Origin: a virus
Strand: one strand, 5' to 3'
Length of the DNA stretch: 41,503 bases
Virus record (IMG/VR): IMGVR_UViG_3300029811_000005
Location: 1-41,503 of that record
The notes beneath the pieces were generated by a model. It ran no database searches. It was not told where the DNA came from and saw only the letters and a list, made by a program, of their open reading frames with translations. A program made the position numbers and the translations under genes. Positions 9,805 to 35,274 of this stretch are shown piece by piece. The first letter of the stretch is position 1. Every line of letters starts with the position of its first letter.

Positions 9805-10850
9805 ACCGACCAGCTCCAATCAATCGGAATTTTATCAACCATTGGTGGCATAAACCTGTGTCTTATCCGATACCAGTAATCCCACTCCCATTTATCGGCT
9901 TGTGCCTTAAAGTCAGCGACTTCTGAAGAGTCAATAGTAGCAATCACCTTTCTATAGAGATTAGCAGCCCCCTTCAAGGCGATAATCTCAGCTTGCTCGT
10001 CTGTGTTTAACTCAGTAATGGAAACATCGGTAGTGAAAGCCACTAATTGTGATTGCCCCACACAAAGTATCAATTCGGTATCCTTGACATTAGCGTAGAA
10101 TTTAAGAATATCCCCAGTGATGACGCTGTAATTCAATGTTCTACTAGGAAATAAATTCTTGGCAATAAGATACTTATCATCAGCAGTCCAATACTTGTTA
10201 GTGCCAACAGAGCAGTCAGCTATAGCGGCTGTTACTGTTGTGGAATCATTATCGGTTATGGTTGCATAGCACCCGTCTGTGGTGTTATAAACAATATGCC
10301 CGATAAGTTCATCATCATCCCAATTTTGACTGCTATCGGTTAATTTAGTAGCCTCAGTAGCCCCAGTATGGTCTCCAGAATAACAGTCATGGATATACAA
10401 CTGCTGTGGTATCCCGCTGAAAGTATCTCCTATAATGCTTGTTAATAAATACTCTTGGTCTGTGCTGCCCTGCCCTAATAGAACCCCCGTTATCCTGTCG
10501 TAGAAGTAAGGGTAAGAATCCACTAAGGCACGGTTTATTGCAGCCAGTTTATCGGCAATAGAGAAGCGAGACAATGTATAAGCCTTGCTTGTTGCTACCT
10601 GTGCTGCAAAGGCTTCATATACGGTCAAAGTCCCGCTTGGTGATAGAAATGTCTTTACCTTCTTTTCTTCTAAGGCGACCGTCATATAGAGATACCAGTC
10701 TTGAAACCAGTCATCGGGGTATCTAGCTAAAGAAGCATCAATCGCTGTCTTCATATCGGTAGCACCATCAGCCGATGTAGTGCCACTGATAGCATTATCG
10801 CCTATTAGCTCGTCTAGTTTAGTCCGCACAACTAATAAAGTCTTACTCAT
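9801..10850 (-). CDS. Hypothetical virion (tail-associated) protein, 349 aa
   Basis: ORF track. It lies inside the tail gene block, and its start overlaps the upstream stop (TAATG). Confidence 0.55.
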   Translation of the reverse strand: MSKTLLVVRTKLDELIGDNAISGTTSADGATDMKTAIDASLARYPDDWFQDWYLYMTVALEEKKVKTFLSPSGTLTVYEAFAAQVATSKAYTLSRFSIADKLAAINRALVDSYPYFYDRITGVLLGQGSTDQEYLLTSIIGDTFSGIPQQLYIHDCYSGDHTGATEATKLTDSSQNWDDDELIGHIVYNTTDGCYATITDNDSTTVTAAIADCSVGTNKYWTADDKYLIAKNLFPSRTLNYSVITGDILKFYANVKDTELILCVGQSQLVAFTTDVSITELNTDEQAEIIALKGAANLYRKVIATIDSSEVADFKAQADKWEWDYWYRIRHRFMPPMVDKIPIDWSWSV

Positions 10851-11137
10851 TAAGTCACCTCTTCTACTATTTCAAAGATATATTCAGGCACATCAGTGTA
10901 AGAATCCTTTGCTAGAAAGGCGTGAGCTGTGTATTTGCCTAATACCGCTGTTGCCTCCGATGTGTAATCATAGGTATAAACACCTGGTGAGCTGTATCCC
11001 ATAGGTTGTTCATCCTCCACAAGTTGGCCGCTTGGGTCTTTTATGCTGATATTGTGAGTGGTAACATTGGTCAGCACACCTTCTACCCAGAATCTCACCC
11101 TTATTGGCACTGTTGCAGTTCTTCTGTATTTATCCAT
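10850..11137 (-). CDS. Hypothetical small beta-rich virion protein, 95 aa
   Basis: ORF track. It overlaps the end of the fibre gene by 8 nt. Confidence 0.5.
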   Translation of the reverse strand: MDKYRRTATVPIRVRFWVEGVLTNVTTHNISIKDPSGQLVEDEQPMGYSSPGVYTYDYTSEATAVLGKYTAHAFLAKDSYTDVPEYIFEIVEEVT

Positions 11138-31902: not shown

Positions 31903-32067
31903 ATGAAAACAAGGAAATTAACGGAGAACGAATTGGAGTTATGCATTAGGGCCAGCAGAATACTAGGCACGCCTATCAAGCCAGGAACAAATATCACGGC
32001 CCTATCATATATCCTAGACGGTAAAAGCAATGAGTTGGAGAAATTATTAAAGGAGGTAAATAAATGA
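31903..32067 (+). CDS. Hypothetical 54-aa protein (MKTRKLTENELELC...)
   Basis: ORF track 31852-32067. The internal ATG at 31903 has a strong SD (GGAGGTGA, 31891-31898). Confidence 0.6.
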   Translation: MKTRKLTENELELCIRASRILGTPIKPGTNITALSYILDGKSNELEKLLKEVNK

Positions 32068-32333
32068 ACCCTGAATGGTATGAGCAATTAGACCCGACTT
32101 GCCTAACTGAAGCAGAATGGATAGAGGGAAGTATGGGAAGACCACCATTGAGCGATGCTGAATGTATCTCCAGAGCTACCCGTATTGATAATGACTTTGC
32201 AAGGCATAAGTTTAGACCTGGCGAGCATTACGATAGATACCTAACAAAGCTACTTGATAAATACGAAATAGTCTTGCGAGAGTATTATTGGGGATGTAAA
32301 TTAAAGAAGACCGCTGGCTCTGCGGTAAAATGA
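32064..32333 (+). CDS. Hypothetical 89-aa protein
   Basis: ORF track. ATGA overlap with the preceding gene. Confidence 0.6.
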   Translation: MNPEWYEQLDPTCLTEAEWIEGSMGRPPLSDAECISRATRIDNDFARHKFRPGEHYDRYLTKLLDKYEIVLREYYWGCKLKKTAGSAVK

Positions 32334-32359
32334 GCCTAACTTGTTAAAGGAGGATTGAA

Positions 32360-32617
32360 ATGAGACAGATATTAGCAAGGCATCACCACTGGGTAGAAGG
32401 GGCTACCATAACTGAAAGCTACGATACCAATGATGATACTATTAGGCGTTTTACAGCCACAATAAGAGGCTGGCGCAACTTCCTAATATATGAGGGCAAA
32501 GTCCAAAGACACACAGTAGAAGCTGTTAAAAACAGAGTGCAAACAGTCAGGGACAGCATAGATATGGGCAATGAAAGTATCTTCTACCGTAGCGTGGCAT
32601 TAAACGGGAAAGGTTAA
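32360..32617 (+). CDS. Hypothetical 85-aa protein
   Basis: ORF track. Preceded by the repeated junction TGAGCCTAA...TAAAGGAGGATTGAA. Confidence 0.6.
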   Translation: MRQILARHHHWVEGATITESYDTNDDTIRRFTATIRGWRNFLIYEGKVQRHTVEAVKNRVQTVRDSIDMGNESIFYRSVALNGKG

Positions 32618-33144: not shown

Positions 33145-34158
33145 CTAGCTCCTCACCGCTCTTAGATAAACCACCGCTTCCCTTAAATCCTTGAAGGCTA
33201 CCAACCTATCTTCGTTGGGATACAGAATCACCGTAGGATTAGCCACATGAGCACCAAAGAAGCCATGTTGCTGGGCGAAATCATCGTAGACCCCGTATGT
33301 CCCCGTTCTTATAGCCACACACTCGCTCTCGTTATAGCGATATTGTTCTATCGCTGCTATGTGTTGATGCTCAACAACTACCACCCTCGTTATAGGGAAA
33401 TTTAATCTTTGGTTTTGTTTAGGGCTATGAGTTAAATTAAAACTAGAGCCGAATCTTCCTTTGTGTAACCTCAGTATCGGATAGAGCATATTGCCTACTT
33501 TGAGATTCACAATGCCACCGTGCTTTGTATAAACTAGCTTTAATCTATTAGCTAGTTCTTTGTCCCAGTCCTCGCCCTCTGCTAAGGCAGTCCAGTAGTT
33601 ATGATTGCCAGTCCCGATACAGAGAATCTTCTCTTTAAGTTTCTTTAACGTCAGGACATACAACCCCTTCTGCACCGAGATGGGCACTTGGTTATGTGAG
33701 CTACCCACCTTCCCTGCTTCAATGATATTCTGGTAAGCATCACCACCAATATAGGCTTGTAACCCAAGTTCAGTTTCTATAAGCTCCATATCAGCCTGAA
33801 AGGAATCATAATCGCAACCAAACATCCCCAAATGCCAATCGGCGGTGAAGGTAATTGCTATTGGTAACTGTGTGTCTATCTTCAGGCTTATCTCGGTTGG
33901 TGCGTATTGATGAAGAGCCACCAAATTGTCCATACTCTTGATGACTTCAAGATGCTCTTCCCAGGATGCCTTCTTGCTTGGATATTGAGGTAGCGGTGGT
34001 GGTTTTACCCTACACGCACACCGAAAGTCCTTGCCTAGCTGATAACTCACCTCAAACCGCTGGCATAGCTCCATCTTCCCTAGATGAGTGGCGGCATCCC
34101 ATTCCTCAGCCCACTTTTTAGCTTCTTCAGTTCCTAATTCTGGTAGTTTTCGCTTCAT
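33145..34158 (-). CDS. Calcineurin-like metallophosphoesterase
   Basis: Ordered motifs FTADWHLG (DxH), IGGDAYQN (GD) and GTGNHNYW (GNH), plus a later LRLHKG. The track start at 34170 is GTG. ATG at 34158 is used here. Confidence 0.75.
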   Translation of the reverse strand: MKRKLPELGTEEAKKWAEEWDAATHLGKMELCQRFEVSYQLGKDFRCACRVKPPPLPQYPSKKASWEEHLEVIKSMDNLVALHQYAPTEISLKIDTQLPIAITFTADWHLGMFGCDYDSFQADMELIETELGLQAYIGGDAYQNIIEAGKVGSSHNQVPISVQKGLYVLTLKKLKEKILCIGTGNHNYWTALAEGEDWDKELANRLKLVYTKHGGIVNLKVGNMLYPILRLHKGRFGSSFNLTHSPKQNQRLNFPITRVVVVEHQHIAAIEQYRYNESECVAIRTGTYGVYDDFAQQHGFFGAHVANPTVILYPNEDRLVAFKDLREAVVYLRAVRS

Positions 34159-34348
34159 AATAAGAAGCACCCCGCCAGAGCAAAGGAGTTAATCTCTAAC
34201 GGGATGCAAATATAGATAAAGCCTAGCTCAGACTTCCGCTGTTACGCTGTCCACGCCTATGGTCACACTATCAACTTCTATCGTAATATCATCGTAGTCC
34301 ATAATCTTAAACATAATTTGTATACAATAGAATACTTTTTGTGTTCAT

Positions 34349-34392
34349 AAAAAGAAGGGGCAACTGTAGGAGCGACCCACAGTCCCCCCTTC
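34349..34392 (-). terminator. Strong intrinsic terminator T3: GAAGGGG-gg-ACTGTGGG-tcgct-CCTACAGT-tg-CCCCTTC + TTTTT
   Basis: Read directly on the minus strand. About 15 paired positions followed by five U. Confidence 0.75.
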
Positions 34393-34601
34393 CATCGTTG
34401 GCTAGTAGACAGTCCAGGTTGCGGTCCTGTTGCTTACTACTGCTTCTCTGCCCTCACTTAGGACGCACCTAAGGTTTTAACGGGTAGCCAGAAGCCAGCA
34501 TTACTTGGGAATACGGCTGCCGTTCTATCCCAAACTTGGCTGGCTAAAGAGCGGGGATTGAAAGCCGAAGCTACACGACATTACTGCCGTATTACCCGCT
34601 C

Positions 34602-34644
34602 ATAAAAAACAGCCCTGGCCAGACTATCCATGAATAGCCTGGCC
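34602..34644 (-). terminator. Terminator-like element T2: 11-bp hairpin GGCCAGGCTAT/ATAGTCTGGCC, then GGGCTG + TTTTTT
   Basis: Read directly. GGGCTG (34615-34610) can also pair with CAGCCC (34681-34676), which places the U6 tract right after a stem. Confidence 0.5.
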
Positions 34645-34710
34645 ATCCTACCAGCGAACCAATAGGAGAAATCAAGGGCTGTCGGTCCAGGGTTACTCGC
34701 CCCGGGGATG

Positions 34711-34740
34711 AAATAAAAACAGCCCAGATAATTCTGGACC
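34711..34740 (-). terminator. Terminator-like element T1: GGTCCAG-aattat-CTGGGCT + GTTTTTATTT
   Basis: 7-bp stem including 2 G-U pairs. It competes with the perfect 8-bp pairing CGGTCCAG(34741-34734)/CTGGACCG(34690-34683). Confidence 0.45.
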
Positions 34741-34776
34741 GATTCGGGGCATAACTTAACCACCCTATTGTCAAAT

Positions 34777-34805
34777 ACTTTATCACAGCCTAGAATCATT
34801 GTCAA
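34777..34805 (-). promoter_or_regulatory. sigma70-like promoter: TTGACA (34805-34800), 17-nt spacer, TAAAGT (34782-34777)
   Basis: It starts right after the stop codon of the regulator gene. ATTTGACAAT is duplicated (34807-34798 and 34776-34767). Confidence 0.5.
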
Positions 34806-34806
34806 A

Positions 34807-35274
34807 TCAATCCCGATTTTTAAGCCAACTTTTATAGTCAGTCCGCTTCCTTTGCTTGCCTGAAATATACTTAACCGCTAGCCTACATCTACGATATACC
34901 GCTTGTCTCTCTAAACTAAACAAACGACACAAGTCCCTCACCTCAACACGGTTAGCGTATCTTGCTATTATTAACTCTCCGTCGCTACAAGCCTTTAACC
35001 TAGCATCCAGTTCGTTGAATATCGCCAGGACTTTATCTTGATAGTAAATCTTATTGAGTGTCCGCTCGGATGCTGGCGGTGATGAACCCATACCCCCGCC
35101 GTTTATCTTGGCTATGCTGGTGTCTTTTAGTAATTCATAATCATTGTTTTCTAGGATACTACCGTCAGGGCTAATCCAATTCCCATCACAGATAATAGAC
35201 AAATGCTTTAATAAGAAGAGTATCTGGTCTTTTTTATAGGAGATTGATTGTGGTGCATACCAACTATTATTCAA
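34807..35274 (-). CDS. Sigma-70 region-4-like / ArpU-RinA-type phage transcriptional regulator
   Basis: The C-terminal ELIIARYANRVEVRDLCRLFSLERQAVYRRCRLAVKYISG matches the sigma region 4 HTH pattern. The size (155 aa) fits ArpU/RinA-type late activators. Confidence 0.55.
   Translation of the reverse strand: MNNSWYAPQSISYKKDQILFLLKHLSIICDGNWISPDGSILENNDYELLKDTSIAKINGGGMGSSPPASERTLNKIYYQDKVLAIFNELDARLKACSDGELIIARYANRVEVRDLCRLFSLERQAVYRRCRLAVKYISGKQRKRTDYKSWLKNRD

Follow-up and report, generated by a model that had tools for sequence, protein, structure and literature searches.

The closest described counterpart of the locus studied here is the lambdoid Q/PR'/tR' switch, in which a strong constitutive promoter lies at once behind the regulator gene, the initially transcribed region carries promoter-like elements, an intrinsic terminator follows tens of nucleotides downstream, late or packaging genes lie beyond it, and the whole arrangement stands after NinG-type genes in the genome. 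The product terminated at tR' is the 6S RNA, or StxS in Stx phages. The lambdoid late promoters have sigma-dependent promoter-proximal pauses with -10-like elements, and that of phage 82 also has a -35-like element (PMC3326312). A second comparison is offered by structured RNAs at the head of long operons, whose stem-loops carry specific conserved bases. HK022 put, two stem-loops of ~70 nt, acts without a protein (PMC9378689), whereas conAn is a large antiterminating RNA that follows, and is co-transcribed with, its protein gene (PMC8191782). In addition, the DUF3800-associated, drum, and skipping-rope motifs of Weinberg et al. 2017 are compact, conserved, and elaborate RNAs of phages or prophages that often lie by terminators and frequently contain UAA triplets (PMC5737381). 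Fremin et al. 2023 catalogued candidate structured RNAs in viral metagenomes, leaving 8,495 candidates unnamed; these include short covarying motifs (~65 nt) from IMG/VR intergenic regions, some of them upstream of terminase or capsid genes (PMC10690425).

We analyzed a viral DNA of 41,503 nt (IMG/VR record IMGVR_UViG_3300029811_000005; "the window" below is this whole stretch), in which the predicted anatomy of a unit on the minus strand parallels the lambdoid arrangement (Table 1). Judged from sequence, its anatomy fits the lambda Q/PR'/tR' logic. It differs from the lambdoid switch in that the regulator has no detectable Q-family kinship, with a sigma-region-4-like helix-turn-helix as its only recognizable part; in that the first terminator, T1, lies much nearer the start (about +30 to +60, compared with +194 in lambda); and in that many members carry extra conserved structured RNA modules and further predicted terminators. 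The explanation that we favor, and consider reasonably probable, is that an uncultured temperate phage here controls a transcription unit by antitermination, that the region comprises the control elements and the untranslated leader of this unit, and that its modules form a cis-acting mosaic.

Table 1. Features of the minus-strand unit, in order of transcription (window coordinates; z, fold energy relative to shuffled sequences).
Feature	Coordinates	Strand	Remarks
Regulator gene	34807..35274	-	155 aa, ORF
Sigma-70 promoter (predicted)	34777..34805	-	10/12 consensus matches plus TG
Start-site element	34762..34774	-	conserved in 11 loci and L060
T1, predicted intrinsic terminator	34708..34741	-	terminator scan; fold -13.6 kcal/mol, z -3.1
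Module D	34602..34705	-	nine sequences, five viral lineages; z -4.4
Three-way junction (53 nt)	34549..34601	-	covariation and covariance model; z -4.4
Module E (53-nt hairpin)	34493..34545	-	comparison; fold z -4.2
Module F	34399..34490	-	branched element CUGGCUA...UAGCCA; near base-for-base match in L042
T3, predicted strong intrinsic terminator	34349..34392	-	-31 kcal/mol, z -7.2, then U5
Conserved 24-aa ORF	34228..34302	-	MDYDDITIEVDSVTIGVDSVTAEV
Start-region hairpin	34167..34207	-	just upstream of ATG 34156-34158
Metallophosphoesterase gene	33145-34158	-	PHROG 7339, E 8e-34

The sequences and coordinates given in an earlier note on this DNA are all exact on the minus strand, namely TTGACA at 34805-34800, TAAAGT at 34782-34777, every stem arm, CAGCCC, both ATTTGACAAT copies, both GGGCTGTTTTT(T)AT copies, and the regulator stop codon at 34807-34809. 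The TTGACAAT repeat occurs in two copies. We agree with that note in placing the unit on the minus strand and in reading it as essentially non-coding. Its description as the longest non-coding stretch of the genome is approximately right: if ORFs of 50 aa or more are counted, 34171-34580 is the largest internal gap, and with a cut-off of 75 aa or more 34171-34806 ranks second. The stretch is mostly rather than wholly non-coding, since the 24-aa ORF is kept in relatives. It is scarcely credible that the region encodes a 74-aa (34581-34805) or 64-aa (34592-34786) protein. These ORFs exist, and in several relatives the corresponding DNA was assigned short ORFs by gene callers, but the TTG start of the 74-aa ORF falls inside the -35 hexamer and the ORF has no family match. 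Among relatives, we found indels whose length is not divisible by three (CCCTGGACCGAC versus CCCTGGCCGAC), inserted hairpins of 5 to 60 nt, and compensatory substitutions within stems; in four relatives the DNA is missing altogether. We also considered a leader peptide from AUGCCCC and rejected it, as it is not conserved and meets a stop after 2 codons in L008 and after 12 in L048.

The 441 nt from 34340 to 34780 fold at -183.4 kcal/mol, compared with -146.7 ± 5.8 kcal/mol for dinucleotide shuffles (z -6.33), and none of 100 shuffles folded equally well. Folded separately, the pieces gave the z values in Table 1, and 34396-34492 (z -0.4) was the sole unremarkable one. The module folds taken separately agree with the comparative structures. 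G-U pairs of the three-way junction and of module D occur only on the minus strand, which sets the orientation of the RNA. The G-U pairs and the compensatory changes point to RNA on this strand, and on these grounds we rejected a cos, pac, or other DNA-level site. The Rfam search proposed in the earlier note returned no ROOL, GOLLD, HEARO, riboswitch, or ribozyme match, either at the gathering score or at E <= 10; the covariance models likewise placed no OLE, hammerhead, twister, or known aptamer class in the window, and the window modules match nothing in Rfam 15. Over the window and 40 or more related loci, gathering and permissive thresholds together gave only tRNAs and one DUF3800-V RNA (in L042), and ARAGORN reported neither tRNA nor tmRNA. 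No DNA similarity was found among 50,697 phage records, no close relatives by the two flanking proteins and no exact core pattern in scans of viral contigs, and no paper in a full-text literature search with the core sequences. The terminase is <30% identical to that of any isolate.

Taken by itself, the promoter match is at chance level, with 7 promoter-like sites found and 6.4 expected. The predicted promoter becomes credible through its conservation in 11 loci (the window, L001, L003-L006, L008, L042, L045, L048, and L057), each of which carries the cassette of promoter, second TTGACA at the start site, and T1. Its -35 hexamer starts 2 nt past the regulator stop codon and is followed by a 17-nt spacer and an extended -10, TG-A-TAAAGT, with the TG at 34784-34785. 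The same promoter architecture, and with it the cassette, is also present in L060 and L061. The proposed order of regulator gene, strong promoter, and early terminator is kept in relatives and in distant phages with a homologous regulator; the regulator precedes the promoter in all related loci, and in some of them other ORFs intervene.

At the start site, a -35-like TTGACA (34769-34774) is followed after 1 nt by a -10-like TAGGGT (34762-34767). The TTGACA is present in 11/11 loci, of which five (the window, L001, L004, L008, and L057) also have a clear -10-like hexamer, either TAGGGT or TATACA. The variants among the 11 loci are TTGACA-(0-1 nt)-TAGGGT, -AGTGGG (TAGTGG at zero spacing), -TATACA, or -CAGAGG, and L060 has TTGACA-A-TGGGCA. 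By analogy with the lambdoid late promoters, the element is a candidate sigma-dependent pause or regulator-loading site. A second promoter starting from the second TTGACA was rejected, since no -10 lies downstream of it. T1 itself has a 9-bp stem, an AUUA loop, and a U-tract, and a hairpin with a U-tract stands at its position in every related locus, in differing sequences. T1 would be the analogue of tR', and its transcript would be ~55-60 nt long.

The regulator gene lies downstream of NinG and methylase genes, which is the position of lambda Q. Homology to Q-lambda, Q21, and Q82 is undetectable, and no Q family was returned from Pfam (E <= 10) and no Q chain from the PDB profile search or Foldseek; the match to PHROG 79, "Q-like antiterminator", reaches only E 4e-4 and runs across the helix-turn-helix region. 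The N-terminal domain has no recognizable fold, and the C-terminal domain is a sigma-region-4-like helix-turn-helix. Pfam gave nothing at threshold for the regulator, with weak matches to HTH_28, HTH_7, Sigma70_r4_2, and DUF1492. Among 14 family members, DUF1492 matches two (best E 0.021) and Sigma70_r4_2 one (E 0.13), in both cases below the Pfam threshold. The structure model (pLDDT 65) was closest in fold to sigma-E region 4 and UPF0122, with E > 0.8 throughout; the C-terminal domain of this model aligns with sigma-E region 4 with a TM score of 0.70 over 56 residues (E 2.7), and neither the PDB profile search nor the fold searches gave a significant match. Of the earlier designation as an ArpU/sigma-like protein, these results bear out the sigma-region-4-like C-terminal domain and leave the ArpU assignment unconfirmed. 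The family comprises 55 unannotated clusters without a Pfam domain, found only in metagenomes. Homologous regulators are present in L048 (hhalign 93%) and L038, and those accompanying the cassette are homologous at an identity of only 22-28%. Rather than as an antiterminator, the protein could act as an activator or as a sigma-like factor.

In the mechanism that we propose, host RNA polymerase would start constitutively at the near-consensus promoter directly behind the regulator stop codon and would then meet the start-site element, where sigma-dependent pausing and loading are likely to take place. If the regulator is absent, the polymerase would stop at T1, ~55-60 nt downstream. If it is present, the polymerase would be able to pass T1, the terminator-like hairpin in D, and T3 in turn, and would continue into the small conserved ORF and the metallophosphoesterase gene, or, in other phages, into terS-terL-portal. 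Placing the control at T1 is the economical reading, because a promoter so near consensus should need no activator. It is the conserved anatomy that suggests this switch, whose promoter, pause, and terminators are all predicted. In L038, L057, L060, and L061 the leader runs straight into the terminase genes; in the window, read-through as far as the packaging genes is doubtful, because an opposite-strand cassette (32064-32617) lies between the unit and the terminase gene. If the switch works in this way, a lambda-style late antitermination would be run by an unannotated regulator family. A classic problem of gene regulation would then have been solved independently, in a system that is simple to study, with a single protein, promoter, and terminator.

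Sequence comparison shows the ~370 nt between T1 and T3 to be a mosaic, in which D, the three-way junction, E, and F are autonomous RNA modules that can be exchanged one by one. This replaces the earlier idea of one large structured RNA fold: four close relatives (L001, L003, L004, and L005) pass from T1 directly into the downstream gene's leader with all modules missing, in L042 the three-way junction is missing, D, E, and F are present, and a DUF3800-V RNA follows T1, L038 has T1 and then the three-way junction alone, and L057 has T1, D, and E. That structured RNA is present is nevertheless borne out by compensatory changes in several stems. We count the covariation in the three-way junction, D, and E as support for the module structures, which are maintained by selection, the structure of F itself being unproven. 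The modules are common to phages of very different base composition and occur in at least three settings, namely in the late leader, 3' of capsid genes, and as arms of another conserved RNA. From their positions, we would guess that they work in cis, either influencing the processing or stability of the read-through transcript or giving proteins a handle to bind. In addition, the invariant junction and loop bases suggest an activity more specific than simple stability. The modules are the more unusual part of the locus, being short RNAs with invariant loop or junction bases, covarying stems, and an interchangeable use. Such portability is, to our knowledge, uncommon among bacterial RNA motifs, and it points to a general, reusable function.

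Alternatively, the stretch from T1 to T3 might be a stand-alone non-coding RNA gene, an "RNA moron" in the late leader, that acts in trans as a decoy, an anti-defence RNA, or a regulator once termination at T3 or processing has set it free. Its place in the leader would simply secure strong, timed expression. We regard this reading as rather unlikely. A terminator bounds the stretch on each side, T3 being very strong, and the modules are optional and horizontally shuffled, like accessory genes. The late leader is also an insertion hot spot, with HNH genes in L007 and L059. L042 carries its DUF3800-V RNA (46.2 bits, against a gathering score of 37.4) at a position equivalent to that of the window's leader modules, and this class is elaborate, often located before terminators, and unlikely to be cis-regulatory (PMC5737381). 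However, the interval between T1 and D is too short to hold a promoter of its own, which leaves read-through of T1 as the only way to make the RNA; D in L045-type loci ends 15 nt ahead of the Shine-Dalgarno site and the three-way junction in L038 ends ~30 nt ahead of the terS start, which are typical 5'-UTR positions; and stand-alone three-way junctions have no terminator behind them. The window modules resemble the DUF3800-associated, drum, and skipping-rope RNAs in the traits given above but match none of their Rfam models, and no DUF3800 protein gene was found among the 43 window ORFs (80 aa or more) scanned against Pfam. The shared position with a DUF3800-associated RNA may help explain that class. 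The window modules further resemble the catalogued viral motifs, whose description includes neither a late-leader mosaic nor a regulator linkage (PMC10690425).

Module D begins with the P1 hairpin (34687-34705), whose 7-nt loop CGAGUAA (34693-34699) is invariant, followed by a linker A and CC. The second hairpin, P2, pairs GACAGCCC with GGGCUGUU (34676-34683 with 34608-34615) around a Y-shaped 60-nt insert and ends in a UUUUAU tail; P2 and the tail together are terminator-like (T2). At the position of D, L061 has a plain terminator with the same UUUCUAUUUC tail. P1 shows compensatory changes across lineages, and its 3' half, GCUGUY, is present in 9/9 sequences though the search pattern left it free. 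Because large hairpin inserts defeated MAFFT alignment of D and E across lineages, pairs were counted by script or by eye, and the comparison of D consists of pair counts. In its minimal 42-nt form (L057), D is reduced to two adjacent stem-loops with the invariant loop and linker bases, and in five lineages it is found where a long operon begins.

These traits make D the prime candidate for a different reading, that one or more modules are cis-acting RNA antiterminators, binding the polymerase like HK022 put or assisted by the regulator like conAn, and make read-through processive across downstream terminators. put likewise consists of two stem-loops and acts alone (PMC9378689), conAn has a protein gene followed by its RNA (PMC8191782), and our modules are repeatedly found just behind a terminator and ahead of long gene runs. 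In contrast to put and conAn, the modules here follow the first terminator, and they are dispensable, since four close relatives have the regulator, the promoter, and T1 without them; no sequence or structural match to either RNA was established. Placed behind T1, D cannot act on T1, and its second hairpin is itself terminator-like. We therefore consider this reading unlikely.

The earlier note had also seen mutually exclusive pairings here, GGTCCAG pairing either locally or with CTGGACC and CAGCCC with either GGGCTG copy, from which an attenuator or riboswitch-like leader would follow. The complementarities exist in the window, the GTCCAG/CTGGAC pair recurs in L008, and three hairpins precede U-tracts. 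However, the GGTCCAG/CTGGACC pairing is confined to these two loci and is absent from L006, L042, L045-type loci, and L057, which have the same modules, and the GGGCTG copies belong to two independent hairpins rather than serving as alternative partners. The partner of the T1 5' arm lies downstream of T1 and would be transcribed too late to compete. Furthermore, the modules occur independently of each other and of T1, no riboswitch model matches, and the three-way junction is also found after capsid genes and inside other RNAs, a misfit for an expression platform. Such a leader is very improbable. Nor does comparison support the long-range stem CGGTCCAG/CTGGACCG that headed the earlier list; two separate folds are conserved at this site, the local hairpin of T1 and hairpin P1 of D.

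The three-way junction has the form GAGCGGG-UAAU-[ACGGCA GUAA UGUCGU]-GU-[AGC UUCG GCU]-UUCAAUC-CCCGCUC. It was recovered in 28 distinct metagenomic or viral sequences. In a 25-sequence alignment covariation is strong: 94% of the cells are paired, double changes occur in nine pairs, and 0/500 shuffles attained the score of the alignment. Its covariance model finds a single copy in the window (80 bits, E 3e-16). About 12 junction bases are invariant in the recovered sequences, partly by construction, because the scan pattern fixed them; the invariance of the third stem was partly imposed in the same way. The tetraloops are stable and look like mere caps. The junction is a clean optional insert, missing in L042 between the same neighboring modules. 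It is intergenic in 26/28 distinct sequences, co-oriented with the neighboring genes, and often located 15-60 nt from a stop codon or Shine-Dalgarno site; in five loci, by inspection, it stands directly 3' of an HK97-like major capsid gene. It is likewise built as a peripheral arm into motif B, a second conserved RNA, where it occupies either of two positions. A degenerate pattern run over 185,579 species genomes gave one chance match, in a Bacteroidales coding region, and the junction was thus not seen in sequenced isolates or species representatives. The junction has no Rfam match, and no protein family common to its loci was found among fragments that were too short.

Another reading would have polycistronic transcripts cut at gene boundaries by way of the junction, which might be a small element for catalysis or processing, either a ribozyme that cleaves itself or a specific RNase target. 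Its compactness, its ~12 unvarying bases (partly pattern-imposed), its covarying stems, and its cap-like tetraloops would suit this role, as would its co-oriented placement at gene boundaries, including the sites directly 3' of major capsid genes. Such boundaries are a kind of position occupied by small ribozymes in phages. However, it resembles no known ribozyme class, self-cleavage within motif B would destroy the host RNA, the invariance of its junction and third stem is in part an effect of the search pattern, and comparable phage-associated motifs did not self-cleave when tested by others (PMC5737381). On balance we find catalysis improbable. A broader possibility, which we hold only tentatively, is that the three-way junction, D, and motif B are undescribed phage RNA classes with a specific biochemical job, to which their unvarying loop and junction bases would point, and that they work beside a new sigma-region-4-like family in the role of Q. 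They would be portable parts plugged into late leaders, gene boundaries, and other RNAs, and the candidate jobs are those of a processing ribozyme, an RNase or protein handle marking transcript boundaries, or an RNA-polymerase-binding element.

Within the favored reading, of a leader built as a cis-acting mosaic, the remaining elements lead to the downstream gene. Module E, present in the window, L006, L008, L042, and L057, has the stem AGCCAGC/GCUGGCU, an internal loop CAAG / UAAU, and a variable inner hairpin. In L057 the outer stem has changed to GGGGAGC/GCUCCCC through three compensated pairs, and the inner hairpin covaries. In module F, a CTTAGG/CCTAAG hairpin is an insertion into a CCC-GAAA-GGG hairpin and is missing from the copy in L042; the structure of F is unproven, with a z of -0.4 against shuffles and without covariation support. 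T3 closes the structured stretch, and in L008 and L042 the corresponding stretch also finishes with a terminator-like hairpin. Small ORFs homologous to the 24-aa ORF occupy the same place in L042 (METETYDAITIPVDSITTPIDSITGEV), L060 (MDDILIEVDYEY...), L061, and L045. The hairpin ahead of the metallophosphoesterase gene is predicted to sequester the start region of that gene, with an anti-Shine-Dalgarno-like CUCCUUU in its loop. The 83-nt segment that encloses it (34150-34232) folds at -31.1 kcal/mol (z -4.5), and the hairpin, with its loop and CUUCUUAUUAUG tail, is the same in L001, L003, L004, L005, and L042.

Comparison of the sequences downstream of the regulator gene across relatives revealed an anatomy conserved in all of them, as read from sequence. 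It comprises, in order, a predicted promoter (-35 TTGACA, 17-nt spacer and extended -10, TGnTAnnnT), a second TTGACA that lies 2-4 nt past the -10 and spans the expected start site, and the hairpin and U-tract of T1, the first predicted terminator of the leader. In five loci, the hexamer 0-1 nt past the second TTGACA clearly resembles a -10 (TAGGGT, TATACA); the other loci have a weaker version (AGTGGG, or TAGTGG at zero spacing; CAGAGG). The same arrangement is found in the more distant contigs L045, L048 and L053, where the regulator is a 154-156-aa homologue of the window's (hhalign 93%, E 3e-7), and in the distant L038 and L060. L061 shares the promoter and T1 but lacks the second TTGACA; in L057, the start-site element and T1 are present, but upstream of them neither a promoter nor a same-strand regulator gene is recognisable. 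In L038, L057, L060 and L061, terS, terL and portal genes follow the leader. A near-consensus promoter should need no activator; therefore, the conserved terminator ~35-65 nt downstream would be the natural control point. At lambdoid late promoters, promoter-like elements in the initially transcribed DNA induce sigma-dependent pauses at +16 to +25 and provide the Q-loading site, and the phage 82 late promoter has a -35-like element as well (PMC3326312). The initially transcribed DNA here likewise contains promoter-like elements. Because lambdoid late promoters carry just such elements, the analogy to lambda Q/PR'/tR' logic drawn in the earlier note is supported, for anatomy only.

The regulator (155 aa) is not recognisable as a Q protein in sequence, profile and fold searches. 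No Q family in Pfam matched it, even at E <= 10, nor did any Q chain in a PDB profile search, and the only fold matches of its AlphaFold model (pLDDT 65), each at E > 0.8, were helix-turn-helix domains of sigma region 4 and UPF0122. Its sole link to Q is PHROG 79 'Q-like' (E 4e-4). A profile search placed it in a family of ~55 clusters, found in metagenomes only (window 34807-35274, P0015-P0055), with lengths of 137-190 aa plus one 93-aa fragment; all lack a Pfam domain and carry no source name other than 'hypothetical protein'. Members share an N-terminal motif, W-x-x-P...Q-I-x-F-L-L...G-x-W, and a C-terminal helix-turn-helix ending Y-x-x-G...R-K...Y/F-x-x-W. Thirteen homologues at 61-69% identity are all of metagenome origin, and in the fetched homologue contigs the regulator gene lies 3' of the genes for NinG and methylases, at the position that Q holds in lambda. 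The window itself comes from an uncultured temperate phage and encodes an integrase, NinG, DNA methylases, HNH endonucleases, a capsid protein and a large terminase. Its DNA matched none of 50,697 phage records, and its terminase shares <30% identity with any isolate terminase.

The region past T1 is a mosaic of modular, optional pieces, not a single fold. T1 is joined straight to the leader of the metallophosphoesterase gene in four close relatives (L001, L003, L004, L005); the window, L006, L008 and L042 have 450-700 additional nt at that point, made of separable pieces (Table). The hexamers, repeats and stem arms described earlier at 34349-34806 (-) are all exact, and 34340-34780 folds at -183.4 kcal/mol versus -146.7 +/- 5.8 for shuffles (z -6.33). 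Folded one by one, the pieces reach z -3.1 to -7.2, except 34396-34492 at z -0.4, leaving module F, common to the window and L042 only, with no structural support. The stretch is the largest internal ORF-free gap in the window at a 50-aa threshold, but it is not, as had been proposed, entirely non-coding, since a conserved 24-aa ORF is present. In L042, L045, L060 and L061, related ORFs of 22-31 aa (MDDILIEVDYEY..EWENFTGE) lie ahead of the first late gene. The 64- and 74-aa ORFs over the stretch were rejected as genes because their frames are disrupted by single-base indels and variable inserts. Substitutions within stems are compensatory and the DNA is wholly missing from four relatives, which also argues against protein coding.

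Features located in the late leader of the window
Feature	Coordinates	Strand	Basis or occurrence
Module D	34602-34705	-	Comparison of nine sequences
Three-way junction	34549-34601	-	Degenerate-pattern search, covariance model
Module E	34493-34545	-	Recurs in L006, L008, L042, L057; outer stem compensated
T3, strong predicted terminator	34349-34392	-	Fold
Conserved 24-aa micro-ORF MDYDDITIEVDSVTIGVDSVTAEV	34228-34302	-	
Conserved 14-bp hairpin	34167-34207	-	Also in L001, L003, L004, L005, L042

RNA structure is real in D, the three-way junction and E. The first hairpin of D (6-7 bp, invariant loop CGAGUAA) is followed by a short linker with a CY end and then by another hairpin, GACAGCCC.../...GGGCUGUY. 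The U-rich tail after it reads UUUUAU in the window and UCUAU in most relatives. A pattern specifying only the 5' part, run on viral contigs, matched the unrelated L045, L048, L053, L059, high-GC L056 and L057; the 3' half GCUGUY, not specified by the pattern, is present in 9/9 sequences. Compensatory changes in the first hairpin convert G-C to U-A, and another pair is A-U, G-C or G-U; the second hairpin accommodates inserts of 4 to ~60 nt. Because a plain terminator in L061 has the same UUUCUAUUUC tail at the position where D ends, this second hairpin is probably a terminator, T2.

The three-way junction is near-identical in the window, L006 and L008, and is cleanly missing in L042 between the same neighbouring modules. 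A degenerate pattern located it in 26 metagenome and 5 viral contigs; in 185,579 species genomes, it gave only a chance hit. Among 25 distinct aligned sequences, 94% of cells are paired and nine pairs show double changes, with shuffles and slid registers all far below the observed pairing. Most junction bases (UAAU, GU, UUCAAU) were fixed by the pattern, as were the loop class of the first hairpin (GNRA-type) and the three base pairs in the stem of the second, so part of the invariance of these features is by construction; no constraint was placed on the GGG/CCC closure, on stem complementarity or on the mostly UUCG loop. A covariance model found one copy per locus. Of 28 distinct sequences, 26 have the motif between genes, and its orientation is that of its neighbours. 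In five loci, the junction stands alone 15-20 nt past major capsid genes that by inspection are HK97-like; it also precedes portal-like, helicase-like (both by inspection) and other genes, sits between T1 and terS in L038, and in 13 loci forms an arm of motif B, a second conserved RNA.

Motif B has a core of ~95 nt, GGGGYGAAAAC-[hairpin UGGC AGYGGAGAA GCCA]-AYAAACCRAUGGCGA-[variable arm]-GUGGAA(U)AGACACCURCCCC, with covariation in the outer stem and first hairpin and the three-way-junction arm at either of two positions. It occurs in L012 (215-345), L015, L016, L017, L020, L021, L022, L025, L026, L030, L031, L034 and L035, directly 5' of the Shine-Dalgarno sequence and start codon of diverse phage genes and at some loci just past a terminator, and is not present in Rfam. 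A third shared RNA piece, GCAACCAYUAACCCACUGGUAUUAGGC...GGAAUG...GUAAGUCCUGC, adjoins the three-way junction in two unrelated contigs (L026 ~170-270, L032 ~400-480, RNA orientation).

We propose that initiation at the late promoter would be constitutive, followed by a pause and termination at T1, and that with the regulator, polymerase would read through T1, T2 and T3 and continue into the small ORF and downstream genes. On the read-through transcript, the modules might then have a cis-acting role in processing or stability, or serve as handles for proteins. Alternatively, the strong predicted terminator T3 could release an RNA that acts in trans, or the structured modules could themselves antiterminate, like put or conAn RNA (PMC9378689, PMC8191782). 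A processing ribozyme is another candidate. None of the modules and other pieces described above matched Rfam 15. The attenuator or riboswitch suggested in the earlier note is not borne out: the competing pairings occur in the window and L008 only, other carriers of the same modules lack them, and the supposed competitor of T1 is located downstream of T1. The leader modules are absent from Rfam and from searchable literature text, and may be part of the catalogue of Fremin et al. 2023, which has thousands of unnamed candidates. Directly past T1 in the late leader of L042 (873-971) lies a Rfam DUF3800-V RNA (46.2 bits, gathering score 37.4). The DUF3800-V set comprises elaborate RNAs, some phage-associated, for which its authors had no functional hypothesis (PMC5737381); this match puts an unexplained DUF3800-associated motif at a defined regulatory position.

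How far the window transcript reaches is uncertain, because an opposite-strand cassette (32064-32617, +), with ORFs of 89 and 85 aa convergent to the unit, separates it from the terminase gene; read-through from the late promoter would run antisense to this cassette. An opposite-strand cassette also occupies this place in relatives; in L003, L004 and L005, it includes a Phage_P22_Y8K6-family gene. Just 5' of the metallophosphoesterase start codon, the 14-bp hairpin has (A)CUCCUUU in its loop, resembling the 16S rRNA 3' end, and in its 3' arm the likely ribosome-binding purines, followed by CUUCUUAUUAUG; by sequence, it looks like a translational control element. In L059 (60-420), two copies of the initially transcribed segment CAGAGGGAACACTTATGCCCTAA, ~320 nt apart, flank an opposite-strand tRNA gene (48.5 bits), which looks like a late-leader insertion that duplicated its target. 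The late leader looks like an insertion hot spot: homing-type HNH endonuclease genes occupy this position in L007 (1772-2287) and L059 (855-1454), and an ORF-like stretch on the other strand is inserted there in L060 (~10650-10920).
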